39,615 nucleotides of DNA. Origin: Escherichia phage PSK1. The notes beneath the pieces were generated by a model that searched no databases, was not told the DNA's origin, and saw nothing but the letters and a program-made list of their open reading frames with translations. Position 1 is the stretch's first letter. Every line of letters starts with the position of its first letter. Shown piece after piece: positions 31,764 to 32,184 of the stretch. Both the position numbers and the translations under genes were made by a program. The stretch is from the sequence record PP541512.1; one strand, 5' to 3'.

Positions 31764-31969
31764 GTGAATACTTACGGGTCCTAGCGGCCCTTAAGTCCTG
31801 CCCGAAGACCTTCCAGTCCAACTATGTGCGCAACAACGCTGCGCTTGTGGCTGAGGCTGCGAGTCGTGGACATCTAAGCTGCCTGTCTATGGACGGGCGT
31901 AACAACGGTGCGTGGGAGATTACCGCTGCTGGCACCAAGTTCCTGAATCAACACGGAGGCTGTCTATGA
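31760..31969 (+). CDS. gp5.7-like protein (homolog of the T7 inhibitor of sigma-S RNA polymerase)
   Basis: 69 aa; near-identical to T7 gp5.7 as remembered (KSCPKTFQSNYVRNNA.LVAEAASRGH.SCLS..GRN.GAWEITA.GT.FL...GGC). Confidence 0.85.
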   Translation: MSEYLRVLAALKSCPKTFQSNYVRNNAALVAEAASRGHLSCLSMDGRNNGAWEITAAGTKFLNQHGGCL

Positions 31970-32184
31970 ACCAAGACGTATCAGGACGCGAACTTAAGGC
32001 AGGACAGAAGGTTGCTTTCTGTCTGGCTGGAAAGTCATACGCAATGTGTATAGGCGAAGTCGTCCGGGTAATGCCTAAGACGGTAGCCATCAAGCATAAG
32101 ACATTTACTCGCTGGAAAGGAGTTACCGAGGAAGTCGAGACGGTACGTGCATTCTCTTCAGTGTGTATCGTTGAGGAGGCGTAA
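31966..32184 (+). CDS. Hypothetical protein (72 aa) at the gp5.9 position
   Basis: GGAGG RBS; ATGA overlap with the gp5.7 stop; basic and Cys-containing, unlike the acidic T7 gp5.9. Confidence 0.55.
   Translation: MNQDVSGRELKAGQKVAFCLAGKSYAMCIGEVVRVMPKTVAIKHKTFTRWKGVTEEVETVRAFSSVCIVEEA

Follow-up and report, generated by a model that had tools for sequence, protein, structure and literature searches.

In phage T7, the small class II gene between genes 5.7 and 6 encodes gp5.9 (PHROG 9014), a non-essential DNA mimic that inhibits RecBCD and MukBEF. What occupies this position in Escherichia phage PSK1, and does its product do the work of gp5.9? We examined the question in the window, that is, the whole analyzed stretch of 39,615 nucleotides (39.6 kb; PP541512.1), which is a complete, circularly permuted K1F-like genome of the T7 family (genus Kayfunavirus). 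A 24.6-kb piece of it shares 97% identity with Kayfunavirus LI10P1 and ~94% with several Escherichia phages, and the 1.1-kb region around the gene in question matches 220 phage records, mostly of Escherichia, Salmonella, and Enterobacter Kayfunavirus. A sequence-only reading had found an unrelated, basic, Cys-containing protein in place of gp5.9, and had supposed that it might inhibit RecBCD by another mechanism or hit a different target.

The neighborhood is that of T7. All on the plus strand lie a gp5.5 homolog (96 aa, 31473 to 31763; Pfam PF11247, E = 9e-9; PHROG 1452, E = 5e-28), a gp5.7 homolog (69 aa, 31760 to 31969; 77% identity to T7 gp5.7; PHROG 1334), and the gp6 5′-3′ exonuclease (288 aa, 32184 to 33050; 52% identity to T7 gp6), whose counterpart is labeled an exonuclease in the matching phage records. 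The conservation of these three genes, recognized from the sequence alone, is thus borne out. Between gp5.7 and gp6, which form the left and right edges of the slot, a plus-strand gene runs from an ATG at 31966 to a TAA at 32182-32184 and encodes a protein of 72 amino acids (MNQDVSGRELKAGQKV...VCIVEEA). Its start overlaps the gp5.7 stop in an ATGA at 31966-31969, as had been noted in favor of its expression, and at the other end its stop shares a TAATG (32182-32186) with the start of gene 6. A Shine-Dalgarno sequence for the gene (GGAGG, plus strand, 31955 to 31959) ends 6 nt before the ATG and was identified from the sequence and from comparison of junctions, while that of gene 6 (GAGGAGG, plus strand, 32173 to 32179) was identified from the sequence within the last codons of the 72-aa frame (V-E-E-A). 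The gene looks like an expressed one.

The nearest upstream phage-type promoter match stands before the primase/helicase gene (plus strand, 27249 to 27269) and differs at three positions from the phi6.5 promoter of EcoDS1; the next one downstream follows gene 6 (plus strand, 33177 to 33197) and is an exact match to the promoter named phi6.5 in EcoDS1. Nine such matches occur across the window versus 0 expected. Because the window scan found no phage-type promoter between these two matches and no terminator-like site in 29000-33600, the gene lies within a class II unit of genes 4 - 5 - 5.5 - 5.7 - 72-aa gene - 6.

Among nine Kayfunavirus copies of the gene, the dN/dS ratio is 0.15 (dN 0.051, dS 0.33), which points to purifying selection; the ratio for neighboring gp5.7 is 0.02. 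Because this constraint is accompanied by distant homologs, a PHROG match, and a confident fold prediction, we conclude that the reading frame is a true gene and more than a chance one. Two other frames were considered and dismissed. A 127-aa ORF on the minus strand (31920 to 32303) conflicts with the confirmed genes of the region, all of which are on the plus strand, and a 90-aa version started by a GTG at 31912 is disfavored because the family residue in the first column, where present, is a Met that aligns with the ATG at 31966.

The product is not a form of gp5.9. BLASTP of the two proteins returned nothing at E ≤ 100, and they fall into separate PHROGs, so homology was rejected and the claim of an unrelated 72-aa protein at the gp5.9 position holds. 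Nor did we find a gp5.9 gene elsewhere in the window, where the best E-values of tblastn and phmmer searches with gp5.9 were 3.1 and 3.9. The two genes are alike in being small class II genes between 5.7 and 6 whose 3′ ends overlap the gene 6 start, and there the likeness ends: the PSK1 protein has a pI of 8.93 and is predicted to be an all-beta barrel, whereas T7 gp5.9 has a pI of 4.08 and is an acidic helical coiled-coil dimer that mimics DNA (PMC9836394). Records with gp5.9 number 187, nearly all at ≥80% identity, and those listed belong to T7, T3, and Yersinia, Salmonella, and Serratia relatives.

Instead, the protein belongs to a known family. It matches PHROG 2251 (E = 6.8e-21, residues 2-71), and Pfam family PF23835 (DUF7205) is recorded for homologs that are 74-94% identical to it as well as for most of the distant ones. 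The Pfam assignment is a precomputed annotation of the homologs and not a direct score of the window protein; the Pfam-A copy that we scanned gave no PF23835 match at E ≤ 10 even for 94%-identical homologs, the model apparently being absent from that copy. Homologs of 24-50% identity are present in other phage genera, and among 1.84 billion cluster representatives 442 clusters (50% identity) match the family profile at E ≤ 1e-3. Nearly all members are standalone proteins of 60-90 aa, a size that the single-domain, 72-aa window protein shares. Rare exceptions are tandem copies, two members fused at the C terminus to a zinc ribbon, and one fused to DUF6465, and none of these architectures was informative about function. 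The distant members P0028 and P0109 have zinc-ribbon-like C-terminal extensions, and in a Kayfunavirus contig (IMGVR_UViG_3300045988_000029, L022 1501-1836) the DUF7205 core is followed by 39 aa (AEQKEKLLAATVPAMSASRTWCQACQENDDRYGHECGKEA) that show the pattern C-x2-C...H-x-C.

Across 163 aligned members, the family signature consists of D4 (100%), G7, G13, V16 (99%), F/Y18, G30, V/I32, K/R34, P37-K38-T39-V40, R61 (95%), and V66. The window protein has the majority residues D4, G7, G13, V16, F18, G22, G30, V32, P37-K38-T39-V40, R61, and V66. Its basicity is mild rather than strong (net charge +2.6, 11 K+R versus 8 D+E). Basicity appears to be a tendency of the family and not a rule: the median pI is 8.9 and 72% of members lie above 8, with acidic exceptions such as P0026 (pI 5.0) and the K2044-HW protein (pI 5.25). 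The description "basic, Cys-containing" is therefore accurate as far as pI and the three Cys residues go, but the cysteines carry no weight, as 34 of 162 relatives are Cys-free. Position 19 is Cys in 33% of members and otherwise A, G, or T; position 67 is Cys in 42% and Val in 39%; and position 28 is Arg in close homologs. Because Cys19 and Cys67 are replaceable, buried strand positions and close relatives have Arg in place of Cys28, we interpret the cysteines as core positions and not ligands, and rejected metal binding by the three.

The gene is accordingly nothing new to the databases, being already catalogued as DUF7205 and PHROG 2251 and, taken alone, a routine "hypothetical protein". The deposited genomes of EcoDS1 (EU734172) and Klebsiella phage K11 (EU734173) contain it as AS9_0028 and ASC_0027, in the same position between gp5.7 and gp6, and these two proteins and gp034 of Pseudomonas phage PaP1 share with the window protein the family, the length, the single-domain build, and the signature D4-G13-V16-G30-K38-R61. 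NCBIfam and PADLOC gave no matches for the window protein, and neither a relative among T7 proteins nor a paralog in the window was found (best E = 1.5). A scan of genome contigs (query A3) yielded one locus. A literature search recovered no function reported for PF23835, DUF7205, PHROG 2251, or the locus tags. The one mention recovered, of K11 ASC_0027, stands in a genome table: a Citrobacter phage genome paper lists the SH4/SH5 copy as matching ASC_0027, without a function (PMC4925675). An accessory-gene screen paper and the BASEL paper do not mention the gene.

The AlphaFold2 model, built from a 30-sequence alignment, is a five-strand barrel with a mean pLDDT of 82.6 and no helix of ≥4 residues, and its predicted fold class is that of a generic SH3-like barrel of the KOW/Tudor type. 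Residues 1-4, including the invariant Asp4, have pLDDT values below 50, and conserved polar residues therefore cannot be assigned to a surface. Structural matches in BFVD were all uncharacterized phage proteins, and sequence searches of the PDB with the protein and its profile gave nothing significant; no functionally specific structural relative of the barrel was found. The predicted SH3-like five-strand fold is shared with the barrels of NusG/Spt5 KOW domains, of eukaryotic proteins of the large ribosomal subunit such as eL21, and of Tudor and PWWP domains, but identity to these is 10-20%, and KOW barrels are domains of transcription or ribosomal proteins, whereas the window protein is a standalone phage protein. 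Neither a KOW (PF00467) nor a Tudor Pfam match appeared at E ≤ 10 for the window protein and 19 family members, and S1 and cold-shock models had no significant sequence match to the family. An aromatic cage is not apparent in the 163-member profile, which has no conserved aromatic set except for the F/Y18 strand position. Weak matches that recur on one and the same region of members came from a single named Pfam family, PF24203 (Phage_ProQ_C_like), found in six of 19 members (best E = 0.032) and scoring 4e-5 and 24.6 bits on P0085 and 19.4 bits on P0028, every score being below the curated cut-off of 27 bits. Only the first ~41 of the 112 profile positions align, and the likeness may be, at most, a superfamily-level resemblance. 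A CusF_Ec match (17 bits versus a cut-off of 27) was taken as generic barrel noise.

If the protein is not a modified gp5.9, what kind of position does it occupy? In K1F, gene 6 directly follows gp5.7, and it uses the ATG and ribosome-binding site that in the window serve the DUF7205 gene. In other Kayfunavirus, the GGAGG upstream of the slot serves whichever cassette follows gp5.7. The window-type DUF7205 gene occurs in 27 records at ≥80% identity. A second DUF7205 lineage in the slot (28 records at ≥80% identity) is only ~36% identical to the window protein (profile E = 9e-8; PHROG 2251, E = 4e-18). Two further occupants are acidic: PHROG 18166 (110 aa, pI 4.5; 26 records at ≥90% identity, as in L006 867-1199, Bas105) and PHROG 4382 (149 aa, pI 4.3; 56 records at ≥80% identity, as in L008 1025-1474, vB_EcoP_F). 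Neither has gp5.9 homology or a counterpart in the window, and by charge both would be more plausible DNA-mimic candidates than the DUF7205 protein. They also adjoin the exonuclease gene in many records of phages whose names refer to Salmonella, Klebsiella, Yersinia, Erwinia, and Shigella. In Pseudomonas phage 3MF5, the slot contains a further unrelated ORF that is rich in Cys. The slot can hold at least five unrelated protein families, or none.

Because gp5.7 is 97% identical beside both DUF7205 lineages (the window copy and that of Salmonella phage Seyj3-1 share 97% identity), the alleles were swapped as cassettes, and by these comparisons the 5.7/6 junction is a swap-prone cassette site in Kayfunavirus. 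The same position holds DUF7205 in Klebsiella phage K11 and other Przondovirus, in Pectobacterium phage PPWS4 (Pektosvirus), and, at 42-48% identity to the window protein, in uncultured T7-like contigs. The expression "instead of gp5.9" consequently sees the locus from T7: DUF7205 fills the slot in phages of these groups, and in K1F the slot is empty.

Several observations concern individual slot proteins. Although LI10P1, the closest genome, is 97% identical to PSK1 over 24.6 kb, its DUF7205 protein is only 85% identical to that of the window, whose best match (97%) is the copy of phage GA2A; such mosaicism would fit recombination at the slot. Unrelated slot proteins have in common a C-terminal tail of ~20 aa (...EPLLGATLAMAKGGLRDE, ...EPLPATLAMAKVGQHDER, ...PLMPYAVAMATGGLDDGC, and, with less likeness, ...VTVPAMSKAKAVSNE) whose coding sequence overlaps both the ribosome-binding site and the start of gene 6. 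It is found in Escherichia phage SP7 (L026 1501-1779), Salmonella phage Seyj3-1 (L009 ~867-1142), PPWS4 (L017 1495-1758), L008 1025-1474, and L006 867-1199; in SP7, a window-type DUF7205 core is fused to ...PKASLMPATVAMATGGLDDGF. The tail may have a function as a peptide, or it may be a side effect of conservation in the leader of gene 6. The window copy lacks it, and in this differs from its SP7, Seyj3-1, and PPWS4 relatives, as it differs from the L022 protein in lacking an extension. In Citrobacter phage NS1 (L023 1501-1720), the unannotated copy has a GTG for the ATG, carries the changes D4A and S6P in an N-terminal motif that is invariant elsewhere, and has lost its usual stop; it may be a decaying DUF7205 gene.

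DUF7205 is not confined to the slot. In three T7-like contigs, it directly follows gp2, the inhibitor of RNA polymerase; it precedes a dNMP kinase in 3MF5 and one contig, and follows the RNA polymerase in a Ralstonia phage. In ~130 Pseudomonas phage records, among them the myovirus PaP1 (Pakpunavirus), it is located among small early/middle genes near a dCMP deaminase and a ligase. From these gene orders, the common factor of the DUF7205 loci is the DNA-metabolism (class II) gene block, and not gp6 or RecBCD.

Some of these contexts have features of their own. In the chromosome record of Pseudomonas sp. NUPR-001 (NZ_CP197353.1, 3822109-3830294; L030), a T7-like block comprises a DNA polymerase of family A, one pentapeptide-repeat and one ligase-like ORF, DUF7205 (3986-4195), a gp5.7-like ORF, an ORF of 105 aa in the slot, and an exonuclease like gp6. 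The block could stem from integration of a T7-like element or from phage DNA that entered the assembly. Three uncultured T7-like contigs with DUF7205 near gp2 have a gene for a ~185-aa protein just before primase/helicase (L014 6293-6847, L027 7481-8038, L028 6674-7228), with weak or faint Pfam matches to Gad2 (PF26128). Gad2 is an anti-Gabija protein family.

What, then, does the protein do? Because it lacks a catalytic motif and hardly exceeds a single fold unit in size, we infer a stoichiometric, non-enzymatic binder, a reading to which we give an even chance. The gene and the selection on it, the family, the fold class, the operon context, the presence and absence of the gene, and its cassette behavior are direct observations; the mode of binding and the kind of target are inferred. 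Under this reading, the gene would be a non-essential, exchangeable class II accessory gene, read from the phage promoter at 27249 along with the replication genes and coupled in translation to gp5.7 and gp6. Its product would act in the DNA-metabolism phase, most likely on a host or phage nucleic-acid-handling protein, or on nucleic acid itself, and would tune infection in some hosts without having a core job. The conserved K/R34, K38, and R61, the mostly basic family, and the KOW-like fold fit a nucleic acid or an acidic protein surface as the partner, and dispensability, cassette exchange, and acidic members fit an accessory role in interaction with the host. Against the binder, the generic fold by itself points to no partner, a net charge of +2.6 is weak for a protein that binds nucleic acid and some members are acidic, and the searches found no characterized homolog for the family. 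The protein may also have an unrecognized enzymatic or structural role.

The protein could be a factor for counter-defense or for another kind of host-specific takeover: the barrel would bind and block a variable host protein, of immunity or of housekeeping, and the slot would be a hotspot for swaps that depend on the host. Presence and absence of the gene and deeply divergent alleles between near-identical flanks agree with this possibility, as does more amino acid change than in the neighbor (dN/dS of 0.15 versus 0.02 for gp5.7). The sole characterized occupant of the slot, gp5.9, inhibits a host nuclease, and fast-evolving accessory regions are reported to be rich in counter-defense genes (bioRxiv 10.1101/2023.04.06.535777). 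However, no defense system or host partner was identified; PADLOC was blank, though no match is expected for an anti-defense gene. One core signature is constant across Pseudomonas, Ralstonia, Klebsiella, and Escherichia hosts, which argues for a conserved rather than a strain-specific target. The proposal also overlaps with the binder and differs from it only by naming a class of target. We consider it a possibility to be kept in mind, although an improbable one.

Rather less probable is that the protein binds nucleic acid to aid DNA transactions of the phage, for example as an ssDNA, RNA, or DNA-end cofactor of the gp6 / gp2.5 machinery. The fold resembles the KOW-type barrels of ribosomal proteins and NusG/Spt5, basic residues are conserved at the three positions named above in a mostly basic family, and the gene always stands among DNA-metabolism genes, often coupled to gp6 or near gp2.5. 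Yet the linkage to gp6 is not universal, and K1F and the phages with other slot occupants dispense with the gene. The net charge is small, a few members are acidic, and the KOW, S1, and cold-shock models have no significant sequence match. Bolder still, and in our judgment quite unlikely, is the conjecture that DUF7205 is a large, unrecognized family of inhibitors that act through contact of the barrel with a conserved host factor of DNA-end processing or immunity, RecBCD included, and that the 5.7/6 junction is a counter-defense hotspot with interchangeable occupants (gp5.9, the two DUF7205 lineages, the two acidic families, and others).

The narrower idea of a gp5.9 analog, in which the protein inhibits RecBCD or another gp5.9 target (e.g., MukBEF) without DNA mimicry, fares slightly worse, and we regard it as very unlikely. 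It has a precedent, because P22 Abc2 modulates RecBCD by binding RecC and without mimicking DNA (PMC9836394), and neither the window nor the 5.5-to-6 region of K11 contains a gp5.9 homolog beside the gene that holds the gp5.9 position immediately upstream of gene 6. That position is the sole argument, however, and it is one that at least five unrelated families, or nothing, can occupy. K1F has neither gp5.9 nor DUF7205, and DUF7205 is also found at other T7-like loci and in Pakpunavirus. An all-beta, mildly basic protein is unlike an acidic coiled coil, and the acidic slot occupants (pI 4.3-4.5) are more natural mimic candidates. Homology and structure searches produced neither likeness to gp5.9 nor a homolog of established function, and thus leave the RecBCD guess unrefuted yet unsupported.

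Finally, it is scarcely credible that the frame is a spacer that only carries the gene 6 ribosome-binding site and couples translation: the Shine-Dalgarno sequence of gene 6 is indeed encoded by its last codons, gene 6 of K1F follows gp5.7 directly without it, and the NS1 copy has an altered start, two N-terminal changes, no usual stop, and no annotation, but the conservation contradicts such a reading, with a dN/dS of 0.15, a signature retained in hundreds of distant homologs at unrelated loci, and a confident fold prediction.

The window gene belongs, as an unexceptional member, to a known family without an assigned function, in an accessory hotspot of a known type, and functional speculation on it is weakly motivated. 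The useful result is the context: across Studiervirinae, the 5.7/6 junction is a cassette site with one characterized occupant and several uncharacterized families. Because a host-nuclease inhibitor, gp5.9, and these families share one slot, the slot provides a compact and well-defined shortlist for screens for host takeover or anti-defense. DUF7205 is the most widespread and cheapest candidate in it, being 70 aa long, confidently predicted in its fold, and represented by hundreds of relatives. If the notion of a conserved host target were true, it would supply a function for a family present in T7-like phages, for which the records give Escherichia, Klebsiella, and Pectobacterium as hosts and to which Salmonella phages also belong, and in Pseudomonas myoviruses of the therapeutic type.
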